Notes under the pieces: model-generated | The model's database searches: none | Told to the model about the DNA's origin: nothing | What the model saw: the letters and a program-made list of their open reading frames with translations, nothing else | Shown here: piece by piece, positions 21,296-29,431 of the stretch | Layout of the letters: every line of letters starts with the position of its first letter | Numbering within the stretch: the stretch's first letter is position 1 | Position numbers and translations under genes: made by a program | DNA from: a bacterium | Lineage (GTDB): Bacteria > Hydrothermota > Tepidihabitantia > Tepidihabitantales > Tepidihabitantaceae | Direction of reading: 5' to 3' | DNA length: 40,468 nt | Assembly (NCBI GenBank): GCA_046485285.1 | Contig: JAWOHE010000064.1 | Coordinates: 1-40,468 of the forward strand

Positions 21296-22159
21296 TCAGA
21301 AGTCGGCGGGCAGGGACTGGAGCTCACGGTAGCTGAAGACCGGCCCGTCCTTGCAGACATACTTCTCGCCGACGTTGCAGCGGCCGCACTTGCCGATGCC
21401 GCACTTCATCCGGTTCTCGAGCGAGAGCCAGACGTCGCCGGGCGCGAAGCCGAGCGCCTCGAGTACCGGGTGGGTGAAGCGGAGCATCACCGGCGGGCCG
21501 CAGACCAGCGCGACCGCGTTCTTCGCCGACGGCGCGACCGCCTTGAGGACGTTCGGGACAAGGCCCTCGGTCGCCGGCCAGTCGCCCGCGCGGCGGTCGA
21601 CGCAGAGGGCGAGGTCGAGGTCGGGCGAGGCCTCCCAGGCGCGGAGCTCGTCCTTGTAGAGCAGCTCGCCCGGGCTGCGGGCGCCGTAGACGACGGTGAT
21701 GCGGCCGTAGTCGCCCCGGCGCTCGGGCCGGAGCAGGTGGACGATGGTCGAGCGGAGGGTGGTGAAGCTGAAGCCGCCCGAGACGATGACGATGTCCCGG
21801 CCCTTCGCGGCGGCGAGCGGGTAGCTGTTGCCATACGGGCCGCGCAGGCCGATTTCGACCCCGGCCGAAAGCTCGTGGAGCGCGGCGGTGAACGTCCCGG
21901 CCCGCTTGACGGTGAAGGCGAGCCGGGCCTCGTGCGGGGCCGAGGCGATGCCGAACGGCGCCTCGCCGACCCCGGACAGGCTCAGGAACGCGAACTGGCC
22001 GGGCTCGTACCGGAAGCCGGCGCGGGCGGCGGGGTCGGGCAGCGCGAACTCGAAGGTCTTGAGGTCCCGGGCGTCATTCTCGACGGTGACCTTCTCGAGC
22101 CGGGCGGGCAGGGGCAGGTAAGGGTTGGCCGAGGATGACCGACGCTTCGCGTTCGCCAT
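21296..22159 (-). CDS. FAD/NAD(P)-binding oxidoreductase, FlxA/AsrB-like
   Basis: PGQFAFLS..GVGEAPF, GLRGPYGN, YGARSP, CGPPVM, LENRMKCGIGKCGRC...CKDGPVF (2Fe-2S). Confidence 0.9.
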   Translation of the reverse strand: MANAKRRSSSANPYLPLPARLEKVTVENDARDLKTFEFALPDPAARAGFRYEPGQFAFLSLSGVGEAPFGIASAPHEARLAFTVKRAGTFTAALHELSAGVEIGLRGPYGNSYPLAAAKGRDIVIVSGGFSFTTLRSTIVHLLRPERRGDYGRITVVYGARSPGELLYKDELRAWEASPDLDLALCVDRRAGDWPATEGLVPNVLKAVAPSAKNAVALVCGPPVMLRFTHPVLEALGFAPGDVWLSLENRMKCGIGKCGRCNVGEKYVCKDGPVFSYRELQSLPADF

Positions 22160-23277
22160 CAGGCCAGCGCGTCGCGCAGGGTCTCGAGCGTTTCGCGGAG
22201 GTCGATGCCGGCCGGGCATTCGGTTATGCACCGGCCGCAGCCGACGCAGAGCACCGGCGGCCAAAGGCCGCCGGAAGCCCCGGCGTCTTCGACGCCGGGG
22301 GAAGACGGAGGTTCCTTTGCTCCCGGAAGGGCTTCCGGCGCGAAGCGCCGGGGGAAGTACAGGAACTTATGGAGGGTGCGGTTGCGCAGGCGGTCGCGGC
22401 CGGTCGGCCGCGGGTTGTGGCCGGAGGCGTGGCGGGTGAAGAGCGCGAACTGGCAGGAGTCCCAGGTCCGGATGCGCGCGCCGGCGCCGTGGCGCTCCTC
22501 GTCGGTCACGTCGAAGCAGTGGCAGGTCGGGCAGATGAAGGTGCAGACCCCGCAGTTGACGCAGGGCCGGGCGAGCCTGTTCCAGACTTCGTGGTCGAAC
22601 GCGCCGGCGAGCTTTGCGCCGAGCGCGGCAATGTCGAGTGCGAAGGTCATCTTCGCCCGGGCGGCCGCCGCTCGGCGGTCGGCCTCGGCGAGGTCGGCCG
22701 CGCCTGCCTCCTTGAGTCCGTCGGTCAGCTTCGCGCCCCGGTCGGTCAGCGGCCGGCAGAGCCAGCGGTCACCCGCGTCCTCGAGCAGGAGGTCGAGCGC
22801 CCGGGTGCCGTGCGGGTCGCCGCCGACCGCGGTGCAGAAGCAGGCCTCGCCCGGCTCGTCGCAGGCGAGCCCGACGATGGCGGTCCGCTCGCGGCGGAGG
22901 CGGTAGTAGGGGTCGTCGAACCCGGGCGCCTCGCCTTCTTTCCCGGCGAGGAACACCCGGTCGAAGAGCTCGAGCGCGGCCGCGTCGCAGGGCCGGACGC
23001 CGAATACGACCCGGTTGGGGACCTCGCCCGGCTCCTCGGCGCGGCCGCGGTCGCCGGCCTTGAACCGGAACAGCACCTCGCGCTGGGGGAAGAACAGCTC
23101 CTTGACCGGGAGCCTGGTGTTGAGGCAGTCGAGGCGGACCTGCCCGGCCCCGGTCACCGGGCCGAAACGGCAGGCGTCGGTGCCGGGCATCCGGACCGGC
23201 GCCCAGACCTCGCCTGCCTTCGCCAGCGCGGCGATAAAGCCGGCGAGGTCCTTCTTCGGCAGCAGGCGCGGGGTCAC
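22159..23277 (-). CDS. 4Fe-4S dicluster protein, FlxB/AsrA-like
   Basis: GTG start (VTPRLL); GVRPCD, CVNCGVCTFICPTCHCF, WDSC, CVGCGRCITECP. Confidence 0.9.
   Translation of the reverse strand: MTPRLLPKKDLAGFIAALAKAGEVWAPVRMPGTDACRFGPVTGAGQVRLDCLNTRLPVKELFFPQREVLFRFKAGDRGRAEEPGEVPNRVVFGVRPCDAAALELFDRVFLAGKEGEAPGFDDPYYRLRRERTAIVGLACDEPGEACFCTAVGGDPHGTRALDLLLEDAGDRWLCRPLTDRGAKLTDGLKEAGAADLAEADRRAAAARAKMTFALDIAALGAKLAGAFDHEVWNRLARPCVNCGVCTFICPTCHCFDVTDEERHGAGARIRTWDSCQFALFTRHASGHNPRPTGRDRLRNRTLHKFLYFPRRFAPEALPGAKEPPSSPGVEDAGASGGLWPPVLCVGCGRCITECPAGIDLRETLETLRDALA
22269..22351. repeat. Nested palindrome inserted in frame in the FlxB-like gene
   Basis: CGCCGGAAGCCC(22269)...GGGCTTCCGGCG(22340); inner CCCCGGCGTC-TTC-GACGCCGGGG; CCGGCGC-GAA-GCGCCGG. 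Confidence 0.75.
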
Positions 23278-24113
23278 CGGATAAACTCCTGGCCGTCTTC
23301 GGGCTTGAAGGTCGCCAGCGGCAACGGGTCGTCGAGGCTCATCCCGGAGACGTGGCCGAAGCGCTCGCGGACGATGGCGGCGACCTTGCGGTTGATGAGC
23401 ATCAGGTCGATGCCCATCGGGCAGGCGCGGGCGCAGGCGCCGCACTCGACGCACCGGCCGGCCATGTGCATCGCCCGGACGAGATGGAAGATGATATTGT
23501 CGGACAGGTCCGGGGTCCGGCCGACCCATTGGGGCCGGTCCGCGTCGACGAAGCAGGTCGGGCAGTAGCAGTTCGGGCAGACCTGGCGGCAGGCGTAGCA
23601 GCGGATGCAGCGGCCGAGCTCGGCGGCCAGGAACTCCCAGCGCTCGGCCGGGCTCCTTGATTCAAACTCGGCCTGGGCCGGGTCGCCGGCGGGCGCGGTC
23701 GCCGCGGCCCGGTCGCCGACGCTCTGCGTCCCCGCAGGTGTTCCTACAAACTCGTCGAACAGCACCGCGTCCGCGACCCCGGACGCCGACTCGGCCGGGT
23801 CGCTGACGCCGATGATGTGGAGTTTCTCGCGGTCGAACTGGTTCTCCTTGAGCAGGTTGACGATCGAGCGCGAGGTCGGGCCGGTCGCGATGACCGTCAC
23901 CCGGCCCTGGCGGCGGAGGCCGGGAAGCCAGGCCGCGAGGTTCTGGCGGCAGTCGGCGTCGAGCGTCAGTCTGTCGCAGTCGTCCGGCCGGGTTATGAAC
24001 GCGGGCACGGCGGTGCCGGGCCGGTGGCCGGCGCGGTAGCCGAGGACGATGTCGGTCCGGCCGCCGGCGAGCAGTTCCCGGCAGCGGGCGCGCAGTTCCG
24101 CGACCGCGCTCAC
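23274..24113 (-). CDS. 4Fe-4S dicluster protein, FlxC/FdhB-like
   Basis: GTG start (VSAVAEL) overlapping the mvhD stop; CIRCYACRQVCPNCYCPTC, HMAGRCVECGACARACP. Confidence 0.88.
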   Translation of the reverse strand: MSAVAELRARCRELLAGGRTDIVLGYRAGHRPGTAVPAFITRPDDCDRLTLDADCRQNLAAWLPGLRRQGRVTVIATGPTSRSIVNLLKENQFDREKLHIIGVSDPAESASGVADAVLFDEFVGTPAGTQSVGDRAAATAPAGDPAQAEFESRSPAERWEFLAAELGRCIRCYACRQVCPNCYCPTCFVDADRPQWVGRTPDLSDNIIFHLVRAMHMAGRCVECGACARACPMGIDLMLINRKVAAIVRERFGHVSGMSLDDPLPLATFKPEDGQEFIR

Positions 24114-24565
24114 CCGGACGCCTCCACGGCCGCGCGGCTCGCGGCCAGCCGGTTGGACGGGCCGAGCCGGCGGACGTTCTCGGTGGCCTCGCGGACGACC
24201 TCGGCGAAGCGCTCGCCTTCCGCGGCCGAAACCCACGAGAAGGTCACCCGGCCCGGCTCGATGCCGAAGAACTCGAGCAGGTCGGCAAGGACCGCGAACC
24301 GGCGGCGGGCGACGTAGTTGCCGGTCAGGTAATGGCAGTCGCCGGGGTGACAGCCGGAGACGAGCACGCCGTCCGCGCCGTGCTGGAGCGCCTTGAGGAT
24401 GTAGAACGGGTCGACCCGGCCCGAGCAGGGGACCCGGATGACGCGGATCGAGGGTGGGTACTGGATGCGCGAGATGCCGGCCAGGTCCGCGCCGGCGTAT
24501 GAGCACCAGTTACACAGGAACGCGACGATGCGGGGCTGGAAATCGGTCGAGCCAGGTTCAGACAT
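24110..24565 (-). CDS. mvhD: Hydrogenase iron-sulfur subunit MvhD/FlxD
   Basis: IVAFLCNWCSYAGADLAG, RVPCSGR, GADGVLVSGCHPGDCHY, WVSAAEG; promoter TGGACA-17-TATAAT. Confidence 0.93.
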   Translation of the reverse strand: MSEPGSTDFQPRIVAFLCNWCSYAGADLAGISRIQYPPSIRVIRVPCSGRVDPFYILKALQHGADGVLVSGCHPGDCHYLTGNYVARRRFAVLADLLEFFGIEPGRVTFSWVSAAEGERFAEVVREATENVRRLGPSNRLAASRAAVEASG

Positions 24566-24692: not shown

Positions 24693-24720
24693 TTGACCGC
24701 GGCCCGGCGTTCGCTAGACT
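24693..24720 (+). promoter_or_regulatory. sigma70-type promoter (TTGACC-16-TAGACT) of the selenoprotein gene
   Basis: Hexamers upstream of the TAAGGAGG SD. Confidence 0.6.
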
Positions 24721-24759
24721 ATCCGAGGCGCAGTCAAGAACTCATAAGGAGGCCGTTCG

Positions 24760-25536
24760 ATGAAGAAGCTGTTATCGGTGCTCGCCCTCGCGCTGCTCGC
24801 CGGCGGCGTGATGGCGTGGCCGGGCCCGGGCACGCCCGCGCCCGACTTCACCGCGCAGGACACCGCCTGGCAGAACCACACCCTGAGTGAGCTCCGGGGC
24901 AAGGTCGTCCTGCTGAACTTCTGGCAGTCGACTTGACCGGTCTGTCGCGCGGAGTTGCCGCGCTTACAGGATATGTACGACGAATACGGCGACCGCGGCT
25001 TCGTGCCGGTCACCATCAACCTCTGGCAGGAAATGTCGGTCGTCATCGCCTACGCCAGCCAGTATACCTACCCATTCTGGCGTGACGGGTCGGGCGCGAT
25101 CTGGAACCTCTACAAGATCGACAGCTACATCCCGCTCAACTACGTCATCGACACCGCCGGGGTCGTGGTCAACGGAACCGAGGGGTTCCCGGAGTCCACC
25201 ATCCGGTCCTGGATCGAGAGCGCGCTGCCCCAGGTCGGGGTCGAGGAGCAGTCGCCTGCCCTCGCGCGCATCGAGGGCGTCCGGCCGAGCCCGGCGCGCG
25301 GGCCAGCGACGGTCCGGCTGGCGCTGCCGCACGCGGGCCGCGTCTCGGTCCGGGTCTGGTCGAGCGCGGGCCGGCTGGTCAACGAGGTCTTCGCGGGCGA
25401 GCTCGCGGCCGGTTCGAGCGAGTTCACCTGGCGGCTGGGTGACGGGAGCGGTTCCCGCGTGCCGGCCGGGACCTACTTCGTCGAGCTCAATGCCGCCGGG
25501 CAGGTGAGCCGGACGAAGCTGTCGGTCCTCGACTAG
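24760..25536 (+). CDS. Secreted TlpA/ResA-like redoxin selenoprotein (UxxC) with C-terminal FlgD/T9SS-like domain, 258 aa
   Basis: TAAGGAGG SD; MKKLLSVLALALLAGGVMA signal; APDFT...LSELRGKVVLLNFWQST-TGA(24934)-PVCRAELPRL continues in frame into ORF 24955..25536. Confidence 0.9.
24942..24969 (+). promoter_or_regulatory. Bacterial SECIS element
   Basis: CTGT-C-GCGCGG-[AGTTG]-CCGCGC-TT-ACAG; apical loop begins 16 nt after UGA, with G at loop position 2. Confidence 0.8.
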
Positions 25537-25555
25537 CCGCTCGACGCAGTATCTT

Positions 25556-25586
25556 CACCGGGGGCCTTTGCGGCCCCCGGTGGTTT
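25556..25586 (+). terminator. Intrinsic terminator-like hairpin
   Basis: CACCGGGGGCC-TTTGC-GGCCCCCGGTG followed by GTTT, 20 nt after the selenoprotein stop. Confidence 0.7.
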
Positions 25587-25639: not shown

Positions 25640-26120
25640 CTACCGCACCAGGACCAGCCGGGCCGACACGCCCTGAAGGTACATCTCCTGTAAGGTCAGC
25701 AGAAACGCCTGCTCGCTGCGCTGGTAGCGATCGAACAGCCGGGTCCGGTAGCCGCCGCTCCGCTCGGTCGGCACCGACAGCGCCAGTTCGCCCAGCCGGG
25801 TCCGCAGCTTCCGCGGCCGGTGCCCGCTCCGGTACCCGCGCCGGCTCCCGGCCCGCTCGTAGCGTCCGGCGCCAAGGTAGTCACGCAGCTCGCTCTCCAG
25901 CAGCTCCTGCAGCCATCGCCGCACCACCTCCTTGAGCACTTCCGGGTCATCCAGTAGAAACCCTTGTCCGGGCGCCCCGGCTGTGTTACTATCGGTCATT
26001 CTTCTTGTGGCCATTCGAGCTTTTCTTTCGATCATAACTGACGCCACATTCTCATCGGAATGCGGCACGGCTCAATGGCCACTCTCTCTTTGCCAATTTG
26101 CAGACATTACGGCACGCAAC
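25640..26120 (-). mobile_element. Truncated IS256-family element: left end plus N-terminal ~120 aa of transposase (start ~26014)
   Basis: LQELLESEL..YLGA.RYER...RRGYRSG.RPR.L.TRLG.L.L.VP..RSG.Y...LF.RYQRSE.A...LQEMYLQGVS, then abrupt stop; end GTTGCGTGCCGTAATGTCTGCAAATT resembles an IS256 terminal IR; no DDE domain. Confidence 0.88.
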
Positions 26121-26160
26121 TTCGTCGCCCGGGTCTATTGCGCGTCCCACCCCCACCCGC

Positions 26161-26304
26161 ACTCCCGGAGTTACTCCCCCAGTAACTCCCGGAGTAAACC
26201 CCCCAGTAACCCCCGGAGTAACCCCCGGAGTAACACCGGGAGTAACCCCGGGAGTTACTCCCGGAGTAACCCCCGGAGTTACTGGGGGAGTAATACCGGG
26301 TATG
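26161..26304 (+). repeat. 12-bp tandem array B (12 units, consensus ACYCCCGGAGTW)
   Basis: acccccggagta/actcccggagta repeats; preceded by cccacccccacccgc, followed by GGGGAGGGGGTAAATTCG. Confidence 0.92.
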
Positions 26305-26408
26305 GGGGAGGGGGTAAATTCGAAGCCCAATGAAGTTCTGGTTTTTCAACCAATTGCGACGATTTCCCGATTGGCCGAGTCGTTAGTTTCTACTAATATA
26401 GGCCAGGA

Positions 26409-26970: not shown

Positions 26971-28140
26971 ATGTTGATGGCCGGAGTGTTGCTGTTGGCG
27001 GCATTGCCGGTGCAGGGGAGCCTCGAACTGACCCTGGACCAGGCAGTGTACGCCGCCGAGGGCGCAACCCGGCAGTTGGACGTCAGCTACGAGATTCCCC
27101 ACGCTTCGCTGGCCTTCCTCAGGGTCGATTCCGGGTTCGCGGCGCGGTTCCGGGTCGGGATCGACCTGCTCGACGGCCGGGGCAACCCGGTGGCGGGCGA
27201 TTTCGCGGACCGGCGGGTGGAGGTCGCCGACTACGACGAGACCGTGAGCCGGACCGCGAGCATCGTCGGGACCTTGTCGGTAGCGGTGCCGGCCGGGGCG
27301 GGCGAGGCGTTGGTGCAGGTCTCCGACCTCGGGAGCGAGCGGCGGGCAAGGGCCCGGTTCCGGCTCGGCGACGGCGGGAGCGGGCTCAGGCTGGTGTTCC
27401 TGAAGTCGGGCGAGCCGAACCCGGCCCGGGCGTACGCGCCCGAGGACACGCTCGAGGTGCGGGCCGAGGTGCTGGACCAGGCCCGGCCGGACAGCGTCCG
27501 GTTCGCGGTGCGCGACGGGCGGCGGCCGATACTGGGCCGGGCCGTCGCGGTCGAGGATTCGGGGGGGCGGTTCCGGGCCCGGCTGGTCGAGCCGCTGGCC
27601 GATTCGAGCGGCGCGCCGGCGTTCCCGGGCGGTGAGTACCGGCTCGAGGCGGCCGGGGTCGGCGGAACGGCCGAGCTGCGGGCGCAGGCCGGGTTCAGAT
27701 TCATGGTGCCGTTCTTCCTCGACGAGACCGCCTGGCGGAACCGGGTCGACCGGCTGGTCTGGGTCGCGACGGTCGAGCAGATGCGGGAGCTGCGCGGGCT
27801 CGCCGCGGAGGAGCGCGAGCCGGCCTGGCGCGAGTTCTGGCAGAAGCTCGACCCGAGCCCGACGACCGGGCACAACGAGCGCGAGGTGCAGTATTTCGAG
27901 CGCATCGAATACGCCGAGGAGCATTTCGGCCGGGGCGACCGCGGCTACCGGAGCGACCGGGCCCGCGTCTACGTGACGCTGGGCGCGCCGGACCAGGTTG
28001 ACGCCCGGCCGTTCGAGCTGGATTCATACGCATACGAGGTCTGGAACTACTATTCGCTGGGGCTCGAGTTCGTGTTCGCGGACCGTTACGGGTTCGGCGA
28101 GTACGTGATGGAGAGCCCGAGGAGCTGGCGTGAACGTTAG
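26971..28140 (+). CDS. GWxTD-domain protein (secreted)
   Basis: Signal peptide; FWQKLDPSPTT..NE....YFERIEYA...F...GYRSDRARVYV.LG.PD...YEVWNY; promoter TTGACT-16-TACACT 9 nt upstream. Confidence 0.88.
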   Translation: MLMAGVLLLAALPVQGSLELTLDQAVYAAEGATRQLDVSYEIPHASLAFLRVDSGFAARFRVGIDLLDGRGNPVAGDFADRRVEVADYDETVSRTASIVGTLSVAVPAGAGEALVQVSDLGSERRARARFRLGDGGSGLRLVFLKSGEPNPARAYAPEDTLEVRAEVLDQARPDSVRFAVRDGRRPILGRAVAVEDSGGRFRARLVEPLADSSGAPAFPGGEYRLEAAGVGGTAELRAQAGFRFMVPFFLDETAWRNRVDRLVWVATVEQMRELRGLAAEEREPAWREFWQKLDPSPTTGHNEREVQYFERIEYAEEHFGRGDRGYRSDRARVYVTLGAPDQVDARPFELDSYAYEVWNYYSLGLEFVFADRYGFGEYVMESPRSWRER

Positions 28141-29431
28141 ACTACTGACCGTGCTGGCGGCCGGGGCGGTGGCCCTGGCCGGTGCCGCGCCGCGCCTGGC
28201 CGCGGACTGGGCGGTGTTTCAGGGCGAGGCGGATTCGAGCCGGGTCGAGGTGTTCTACTCGGTGCCGTACCGCCTGCTGAACTACGTCCGGGCCGAGCAG
28301 GGGCTGGAGGCGAAGTTCGCGGTGCGGTTCGAGATGAGCGGGCCGGGCTTCGAGCGGGAGGCGACGCTGTACCGGCGCGGGGCGATCGAGTCGTTCGCCG
28401 CGGCCGAGGAGGCGGACCGGACGTTCGTGGACGGGTTCAGCCTCGCGGCGCCGGCGGGCCGCTACCTGTTGCGGGTGACGCTCTCGGTGCTGGACAGCGC
28501 GGTGCGCCACGAGGAGCCGGGTTTCGTCCCGGCCGACGTCTTCGAGGACAGCATCGAGGTGCCGGCGTTCCGGGCGCGGCCGGACCTGAGCACGCTCCAG
28601 CTCGCCTCGGGCGTGGTCCACGATTCGGCGTCGGGCGGGTTTTCGGTCGTGCCGAACCCGTCCCGGGTGTTCGGCGCGGACCGGGTCTACTTCTACTACG
28701 AGGGCTACGGGCTGAGCCCGGCGGCGGACAGCTACGAACTCGCGACGGCGGTCATCCGGCCGGCGGCCGAGACGCTGGTCGCGAGCCGCCAGGCCCGGCA
28801 CAAGGGCGGGCGCGAGCGGGTGTCGGCCGCGCTCGGGGTCAGCGTCGAGGGACTCGCGCCGGGCGAGTACCGGCTGGCGGTGACGATGCGCGACCGGGCG
28901 ACCGGCGCCACGGCCGGGCGGGTCGCGCCCTTCCGGGTCGCCGGGGCCGACGAGGGGCCGGAGGGCGGCACGGTCTACCGGCTCCAGATGACCCCGCTCG
29001 AGGCGAAGTACCACGACCGGCTCGAGTTCATCGCGAGCCCGCGCGAGCTTGCCTACTACCGGGCGCTGGGCGACTCGGGGAAGCAGTCCTACCTGGCGTG
29101 GTTCTGGTCGCGCCACAACCTGGCCGAGTTCGCCCGGCGGATGGAGACCGCGAGCGAGCGCTTCCGGTCGATGCAGACCGACGGCCTGCGCACCGACCGG
29201 GGCAGGATATACGTCAAGTACGGCCAGCCCGACGAGATCGACCGGCGGGTGCTGGAGATTGACCGGCGGCCGCGCGAGTACTGGAGTTACTACGCCCAGG
29301 GCCACGTCTTCGTGTTCATCGACATCACCGGGAGCGATGACTACCGGCTGGCGTGGACGAACAGCCCGGACGAGCCCCGGACCGGCTACGAGGGCCTCCT
29401 GACGCCGGACGAGCAGGAGACGTTCCGCTGA
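28130..29431 (+). CDS. GWxTD-domain protein (secreted)
   Basis: Signal peptide; FW...F..RM..A.ERF....DGLRTDRGRIYVKYGQPDEI...EYWSY...FVFID. Confidence 0.88.
   Translation: MNVRLLTVLAAGAVALAGAAPRLAADWAVFQGEADSSRVEVFYSVPYRLLNYVRAEQGLEAKFAVRFEMSGPGFEREATLYRRGAIESFAAAEEADRTFVDGFSLAAPAGRYLLRVTLSVLDSAVRHEEPGFVPADVFEDSIEVPAFRARPDLSTLQLASGVVHDSASGGFSVVPNPSRVFGADRVYFYYEGYGLSPAADSYELATAVIRPAAETLVASRQARHKGGRERVSAALGVSVEGLAPGEYRLAVTMRDRATGATAGRVAPFRVAGADEGPEGGTVYRLQMTPLEAKYHDRLEFIASPRELAYYRALGDSGKQSYLAWFWSRHNLAEFARRMETASERFRSMQTDGLRTDRGRIYVKYGQPDEIDRRVLEIDRRPREYWSYYAQGHVFVFIDITGSDDYRLAWTNSPDEPRTGYEGLLTPDEQETFR

Follow-up and report, generated by a model that had tools for sequence, protein, structure and literature searches.

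The window, a stretch of 40,468 nucleotides (contig JAWOHE010000064.1 of assembly GCA_046485285.1, positions 1 to 40,468 of the forward strand), carries at 24760-25536 on the plus strand one gene which, when its TGA is read as U, encodes a protein of 258 amino acids and ends at a TAG stop (25534-25536). The genome assembly comprises 2.34 Mb with a GC content of 69% and is 88% complete. The ORF tool had placed the start of the gene at a TTG (24955), giving a product of 193 amino acids, as against an in-frame ATG further upstream at 24760. The sole in-frame TGA (24934-24936) is codon 59 and lies in the motif FWQST-U-PV-C. The following features were identified at the locus:

24693-24720 (+): sigma70-like promoter match, 9/12, a consensus match only (2 in the region against 0.0 expected from shuffles)
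24747-24752 (+): Shine-Dalgarno AGGAGG, from the sequence
24760-25536 (+): full coding sequence, 258 amino acids through one UGA (frame reading; Cys homologs P0005 and P0011)
24760-24816 (+): predicted cleavable Sec-pathway signal peptide without lipobox, residues 1-19
24826-25230 (+): ResA/TlpA-like redoxin domain, residues 23-157 (Pfam AhpC-TSA/Redoxin; AF2 model; Foldseek)
24934-24936 (+): predicted Sec codon UGA, U59, aligned to ResA Cys74 (TGA in 69/76 homologous sites, TGC in 3)
24942-24969 (+): bacterial SECIS hairpin (covariation), upper stem 24947-24963, loop AGTTG, weaker lower stem
24943-24945 (+): resolving Cys62 (Cys at +3 in 69/69 TGA homologs)
24952-24954 (+): Glu65, equivalent of ResA Glu80 (Glu at +6 in 68/69 TGA homologs)
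25132-25134 (+): Pro125, invariant, at the thioredoxin-fold cis-proline position (cis geometry predicted from the ResA alignment)
25237-25248 (+): GVEE, opening the linker that precedes the C-terminal domain (sequence; low-pLDDT segment 161-164)
25267-25533 (+): C-terminal FlgD_ig / T9SS type A-like sorting domain (PF13860 over cut-off; TIGR04183 19.8 against 23)
25555-25583 (no strand): probable terminator, a 12-bp GC hairpin 3' of the stop (-27 kcal/mol; uncalled by the terminator scan)

The preliminary description of this DNA had argued that the called start misses upstream coding sequence with a signal peptide, that a single TGA occupies the first cysteine position of a CxxC motif, and that standard annotation breaks the protein. 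Each of these points was borne out. The AGGAGG and the ATG at 24760 lie upstream of the called start, in the same frame. A hydrophobic h-region is present in 64 of the 67 TGA homologs with enough sequence upstream, and U59 falls on Cys74 of ResA when aligned with the TlpA/ResA proteins. Over its whole length the readthrough protein can be aligned with two full-length Cys homologs, P0005 and P0011. Among the 27 closest protein-database homologs, 25 start downstream of U59; the two that are full-length have CxxC. The present reading thus corrects a systematic mis-annotation, which deprives 25 of these 27 homologs of signal peptide and active site; gene callers shorten the redoxin gene throughout one family of uncultured WOR-3 bacteria.

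The gene looks monocistronic, and comparison of loci among relatives found no conserved neighbour or linked electron donor. It adjoins Omp28-like TGA genes in three relatives (G212, G214 and G219). In the window, a divergent operon at 21296-24560 (-) encodes an MvhD-like protein, a 4Fe-4S protein and AsrA/AsrB-like subunits; the MvhD-like protein, as read from the sequence, is a Cys form although the genome uses Sec. A functional link to this operon was rejected, as it is shared by none of the other loci tested. An IS256 transposase fragment lies directly 3' of the gene at 25640-26068 (-), followed by a short-period tandem repeat at approximately 26100-26330 and two tandem GWxTD-domain genes at 26971-29431 (+).

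The UGA codon and its SECIS hairpin

The genes selA, selB, selC and selD, which the preliminary description had named as a check, are all present in the genome. Profile scores were over cut-off for selA (537.7 bits), selB (357.5) and selD (334.8), a tRNA-Sec was detected at 73 bits, and selD contains a TGA of its own. The genome also has an RF2-like gene, and TGA is the stop of 18 of 54 tagged proteins, indicating that UGA is recoded locally and not genome-wide. ARAGORN additionally reported, at C59:16576-16670, a tRNA with an undetermined four-base anticodon. A second copy of the redoxin, on contig C37 at a distance of about 5 kb from selD/selB, has the same TGA and an identical 17-nt hairpin; its 452 amino acids include extra domains preceding a variant tag.

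A search of 272 genomes of the phylum, with 150 of 262 matches listed, found homologs in at least 40 of the 43 genomes of the same family. Seventy-eight sites, mostly from the best-listed matches, were examined, and removal of one duplicate and one generic TlpA left 76 homologous WOR-3 sites. These comprise 69 TGA, 3 TGC, 3 GAC (Asp) and 1 TCA (Ser), with TGA at the catalytic-Cys position spanning five GTDB families. Conservation of both TGA and hairpin among orthologs, on which the Sec reading had been made to depend, was thus observed (69/76 sites; upper stem paired in 312/312 cells). In a tree of 81 rows, built from few columns with a midpoint root and leaving out a duplicate, a broken copy and a truncated copy, 74 tagged redoxins form one clade (100/100) separate from generic TlpA. 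Cys forms are nested within it at two places, and Asp and Ser forms once each, a pattern suggesting that Sec is ancestral in this clade.

In G222 (92% complete), selA and selB were not found, the tRNA-Sec match is weak (50.7 bits), and the redoxin has TGC at the site and has lost the hairpin. The generalisation that both selA-less genomes use Cys was rejected, since G223 has selB and tRNA-Sec; this leaves G222 as the single true control without Sec (n=1). In G184 and G223, which do use Sec, the long paralog nevertheless has Cys, with the hairpin retained in G223. An environmental relative of approximately 90% identity, found in three read runs, has its TGA unchanged among the changes listed, and occurs also in a contig from an RNA library, which is no proof of transcription. 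The genome under study was itself not found in the sequencing runs searched (share 0.04). Named close matches in the database searches were WOR-3 or unclassified only; P0195, labelled Cloacimonadota, matches a locus of the WOR-3 phylum in GTDB. A search of representatives for spread beyond WOR-3 was swamped by FlgD_ig repeats.

Several variant copies were also seen. Tandem paralogs in which Asp or Ser replaces Sec (L029/L047 in G220, L046 in G212, L048 in G217, L049 in G257) include two that lack the second Cys as well, and some retain hairpin remnants; they are possibly catalytically dead binders. A distant family (L049-L052 and L059-L062, in G256-G258), with 4-7 matches per genome among the matches listed, has the hairpin shifted further from the UGA and the redoxin fused inside larger proteins. 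L011 (G189) and L240 are broken alleles or assembly errors, with a TAG upstream of the TGA or the reading frame apparently shifted ahead of it.

The hairpin GCGCGG-AGTTG-CCGCGC was present as claimed. Its upper stem (24947-24963) has 6 bp, the loop AGTTG (24953-24957) lies 16 nt after the TGA, and CTGT (24942-24945) pairs with ACAG (24966-24969) in the lower stem. In the bSECIS model, as set out in PMC13188914, the loop has 3-9 nt with G in its first two positions, the stem 4-16 bp, the distance from UGA is 16-37 nt and the MFE is at most -7.5. The present hairpin lies within all of these limits (5-nt loop, 6 bp, 16 nt, -10.5 kcal/mol). Its stability was rejected as evidence: the 67-nt fold at the site gave z=0.14, and in this 69% GC genome a hairpin of equal stability follows 3019 of 50231 six-frame TGA triplets at a distance of 16-37 nt, in 420 cases with the loop at 16-18 nt.

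Comparison among relatives gave a different kind of evidence. The alignment contained 53 of the 69 TGA sites; the other 16 belong to three distant families, in which the hairpin has a different form or position. The upper stem was paired in 312/312 cells, and double changes were seen 27 times, at 4 of the 6 pairs; the relatives do not contribute independently to these counts. This pairing was reached by 0 of 500 shuffles, slid controls gave 25-67%, and pairing with the lower stem added was 83%. Among 51 TGA sites of the family, CGC (Arg) at codon +4 goes with CGC at +9 (29/29) and CTC (Leu) at +4 with CGA at +9 (21/21), so that a synonymous change at +9 (Arg CGC/CGA) tracks the exchange of Arg and Leu at +4. 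Likewise, Ala-to-Glu (GAG) at +5 is paired with CCG-to-CCT at +8 (2/2). In the loop, Leu has the codon TTG or TTA in 49/49 cases, compared with 31/427 elsewhere in the same genes, indicating that the loop constraint imposes rare Leu codons. Conservation and covariation of the hairpin among relatives are beyond chance, and the pattern is diagnostic. The export-tagged redoxins also provide an unusually clean natural covariation dataset for bacterial SECIS. Taken from the sequence comparisons, the UGA at codon 59 almost certainly specifies selenocysteine.

Redoxin fold, C-terminal tag and proposed function

Pfam matches over cut-off were AhpC-TSA (77.2 bits, residues 23-137), Redoxin (57.7) and FlgD_ig (36.6, residues 182-246), with a weak GSHPx match in addition. 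The best NCBIfam match was ResA, at 74 against a cut-off of 170; TlpA (42/230) and DsbE (30/123) also scored below cut-off. In the AF2 model (pLDDT 86), a short flexible linker joins a thioredoxin-fold domain to an all-beta domain. ResA was the first-ranked Foldseek match (TMt 0.90), the top ranks being all of ResA/TlpA type and an AhpC-type entry appearing only at rank 48. In the sequence alignment, U59, C62, E65 and P125 fall on the active-site Cys pair, Glu and cis-Pro positions of ResA (numbering 74, 77 and 80 taken from PDB titles). Thus the thioredoxin fold, the CxxC(-xxE) motif with U for the first C and the cis-Pro position are all present, and the protein contains no Cys or Sec besides U59 and C62. 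This ResA-type fold and its active-site positions make a reductase or isomerase role the best supported prediction.

The C-terminal tag scores below cut-off with both T9SS profiles, TIGR04183 (19.8 against 23) and Por_Secre_tail PF18962 (14.5 against 27); with TIGR04183, 20/20 family members match at E<=1e-3. A tag-profile search of the genome returned 88 ORFs, with the domain C-terminal in 86, on unrelated signal-peptide proteins that include PorU-like ones. For the modelled tag, the highest query TM-score among the matches listed (0.69) was that with PorU of P. gingivalis; the matches of the tag to PorU, FlgD, PorZ and unrelated Ig-like domains are weak and generic (E ~1e-3). Six PorV genes in the genome score over cut-off, and two PorU-like ORFs of about 1300 codons score below the NF033707 cut-off, one of them adjoining a PorV gene. 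A search of this 88%-complete assembly found no SprA, a miss that is uninformative given the blind control; SprA_N is present in 41/43 relatives, in 4/4 congeners and in all 29 genomes that are at least 90% complete, which makes assembly loss likely here. GldK gave only partial matches below cut-off in this genome, GldM was not found in it and GldL was found in 0/44 genomes, the controls for the last two being blind and the misses uninformative. The combination of SprA-like proteins in 41/43 relatives and PorV/PorU-like proteins in this genome, with neither GldL nor GldM detected under blind controls, is possibly a reduced T9SS. According to the available part of PMC11205867, PorV receives type A cargo and PorU cleaves it. 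From these sequence features, export by a T9SS-type route appears quite probable.

The explanation that we favour, and regard as fairly probable, is a Sec-containing thiol-disulfide oxidoreductase sent to the cell surface via such a route. SelB with Sec-tRNA would bind the hairpin 16 nt past the UGA and, almost certainly, insert Sec at codon 59, and the signal peptide would carry the redoxin through Sec into the periplasm. The Ig-like tag, common to approximately 88 proteins of the genome, would then be recognised by an SprA/PorV translocon and probably be removed by a PorU-like sortase, leaving the redoxin released or anchored outside; these steps from recognition to release are likely. U59-x-x-C62 would cycle between selenol/thiol and selenenyl-sulfide, and the redoxin would act on envelope or surface proteins by reducing or reshuffling their disulfides or Se-S bonds, a direction that we infer from the ResA-type Glu and cis-Pro. 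Its likeliest clients, on a speculative and rather doubtful view, would be other exported Cys/Sec proteins of the cell. Surface export and anchoring are worded conditionally here because the tag falls short of the T9SS cut-offs and the search of this assembly for SprA found none. Hence, of the exported, possibly surface-anchored Sec oxidoreductase of the preliminary description, the Sec redoxin stood (69/76 TGA, covariation, sel genes), while its export and anchoring we only infer.

Electrons for such a protein must cross the envelope, and if the redoxin is exported, the question is raised of how the selenol is supplied with electrons beyond the outer membrane. Candidate donors are the single CcdA of the genome, which is unlinked and lies within an arsR-arsM-like operon with its own thioredoxin, or the TlpA, barrel and membrane Fe-S cluster on C60. 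This row of genes (C60:8932-17113, L086) encodes an Omp28-like Sec lipoprotein, a TlpA (CVNC), a probable outer-membrane barrel, a membrane 4Fe-4S protein, a lipoate-synthase-like protein, a transporter and a tagged Omp28-like Sec protein, the barrel and the membrane Fe-S protein being named by reading of their sequences. A trans-envelope electron relay is a possible function of the row.

Three other explanations were weighed. The Sec redoxin might stay in the periplasm, with the FlgD_ig-like domain as a binding or retention module, and act after CcdA in the manner of CcmG/ResA. The periplasm is the easier place to supply with reducing power, a CcdA exists, no motor genes were detected (GldL, GldM; controls blind), and the tag is below the T9SS cut-offs yet above that of FlgD_ig. 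Against this stand the C-terminal position of the domain in 86/88 cases on unrelated signal-peptide proteins, including PorU-like ones, the PorV and PorU-like genes here with SprA in relatives, and the placement of CcdA in an arsR-arsM-like operon with its own thioredoxin, so that we consider periplasmic retention unlikely. Lower still we place an exported, Prx/GPx-like Sec enzyme, a peroxidase or a reductase of sulfur species, that would detoxify peroxides or polysulfides and not act on protein disulfides. Sec is favoured in peroxidases, and AhpC/TSA is the best Pfam match, with GSHPx weakly matched. Table 1 of PMC13188914 files PF00578 UxxC proteins as 'Prx-like'; the motif here is UxxC, however, whereas the same source gives PxxxTxxU for Sec-Prx. 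The Foldseek ranking is led by ResA/TlpA-type structures, and PrxU scores 17 against a cut-off of 270.

A true stop at the TGA (through a pseudogene, a sequencing error or a split gene), or its translation as Trp or Gly, is very improbable. The insignificance of the hairpin taken alone (z=0.14; 3019/50231) would allow it, and the database protein P0122 has Trp at the site, which may be a code-4 translation. It is opposed by TGA at the catalytic-Cys position in 69/76 sites across five GTDB families, by the covarying stem and the Cys substitutes (Sec/Cys pairs), and by the unchanged TGA, among the changes listed, of the environmental relative; TGA is moreover a normal stop in this genome, so there is no global reading as Trp or Gly.

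Other tagged TGA genes and comparison with known systems

The genome was scanned for TGA inside tagged proteins, and the six further families obtained were each checked in 44 family genomes. Including the two redoxins, the genome (G000) has 13 export-tagged TGA genes in seven families. Besides the redoxins, these are:

C6:9672 (-), C13:972 (+), C44:22864 (-), C44:23849 (-), C58:1779 (-): five paralogous, putatively exported CBM-like TGA genes with a covarying hairpin and GGTC loop
C60:9879 (-), C90:13067 (+), C101:52158 (+), C48:10464 (+), C49:20541 (+), C30:24730-25230 (+): Omp28-like, FG-GAP, Cys-Sec, CxxU and BNR-propeller TGA genes with conserved TGA and hairpin

One TGA was present in 106/119 matches of the CBM-like family, for which one Cys homolog was seen. 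The best 39 matches of the Omp28-like family all have TGA, and the two distant homologs checked have Cys. TGA was found in 44/44 for the FG-GAP family, in 15/16 for the Cys-Sec family (the remaining one being partial), in the best 15 of 33 matches for the CxxU family and in 75/75 for the BNR propeller family. At the checked loci of the six families, the TGA lies at a constant site and is followed by a conserved G-loop hairpin. Two further TGA candidates, at C60:16903 (-) and C68:4395 (-), comprise one Omp28-like lipoprotein with UxxC and one tagged protein that has C-x-x-x-U and whose hairpin is atypical.

Tentatively, this WOR-3 family may run a cell-surface selenoproteome of at least seven unrelated T9SS-tagged families (redoxin, Omp28-like, two lectin/CBM-like, FG-GAP, BNR propeller and Cys-Sec), served by a reduced T9SS without recognisable Gld motor, with the UxxC redoxin maintaining their selenols and thiols extracellularly. 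If so, Sec chemistry would take place beyond the outer membrane, in non-thioredoxin folds and at large scale. No close match to any of the six other families was found in G222, which keeps a Cys redoxin, indicating that tending selenoproteins would not be the only job of the redoxin. If the export is right, selenoproteins would undergo T9SS-type secretion in a phylum outside Bacteroidota. Exported Sec would not be unprecedented, as extracellular selenoproteins are described for the SAO system in the available part of bioRxiv 2022.07.06.499078.

Literature searches joining selenoproteins with WOR-3, or with Omp28 in bacteria, found no such work, and those joining selenoproteins with T9SS, or T9SS with WOR-3, found nothing relevant; no mention was found in the main text of the deep-Sep paper (PMC12013277). 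BSepDB, to judge from the available part of PMC13326102, may hold these genes already under a redoxin label.

The redoxin shares with T9SS type A cargo of Bacteroidota a signal peptide and a C-terminal Ig-like tag, but it comes from the WOR-3 phylum, its tag is divergent and motor genes were undetected. With Bacillus ResA, TlpA and CcmG/DsbE it has in common the fold (TMt ~0.9), the CxxC-equivalent, the equivalent of Glu80 and the cis-Pro position. It differs from them in having Sec for the N-terminal Cys, usually with no Trp before it, in scoring below the NCBIfam cut-offs for ResA, TlpA and DsbE, and in that no link to ccdA or cytochrome c genes was seen. ResA, TlpA and DsbE are membrane-anchored and have a linked CcdA/DsbD partner, whereas the redoxin has a cleavable signal and a C-terminal tag in place of the membrane anchor of ResA, TlpA and CcmG. 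Two ResA-like Sec redoxin families, NF041054 (WAxxUGC) and NF053656 (TUGYCR redoxin), have different motifs and do not include it (37 against 300 bits and 15 against 100 bits, respectively). The Omp28-related selenoprotein NF045500 (GOS_C) is likewise a Trx-like UxxC envelope selenoprotein, but the catalytic domain of the redoxin is not Omp28. The redoxin is therefore ResA/TlpA-like in its working, outside the named ResA/TlpA/DsbE families and within the broad group of UxxC redoxin selenoproteins.

Table 1 of PMC13188914 (119 families) lists UxxC forms of PF00578 ('Prx-like thiol:disulfide oxidoreductase'), PF08534 ('Redoxin family protein') and cd02966 ('Thiol-disulfide isomerase-like'), plus the Omp28-related GOS_C. 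These UxxC redoxins have the same Pfam domains over cut-off, the UxxC motif and an in-ORF bSECIS; by table description, and not by representative sequences, none of them carries a C-terminal domain of T9SS or FlgD type. The architecture had been called unusual at the outset, which holds for the export-tag fusion, absent from that table, and not for the Sec redoxin itself, already a known kind. Within the scope of that table, the new part is the fusion of a UxxC Sec redoxin to an export tag, by which the Sec redoxins gain an export-tagged subfamily.
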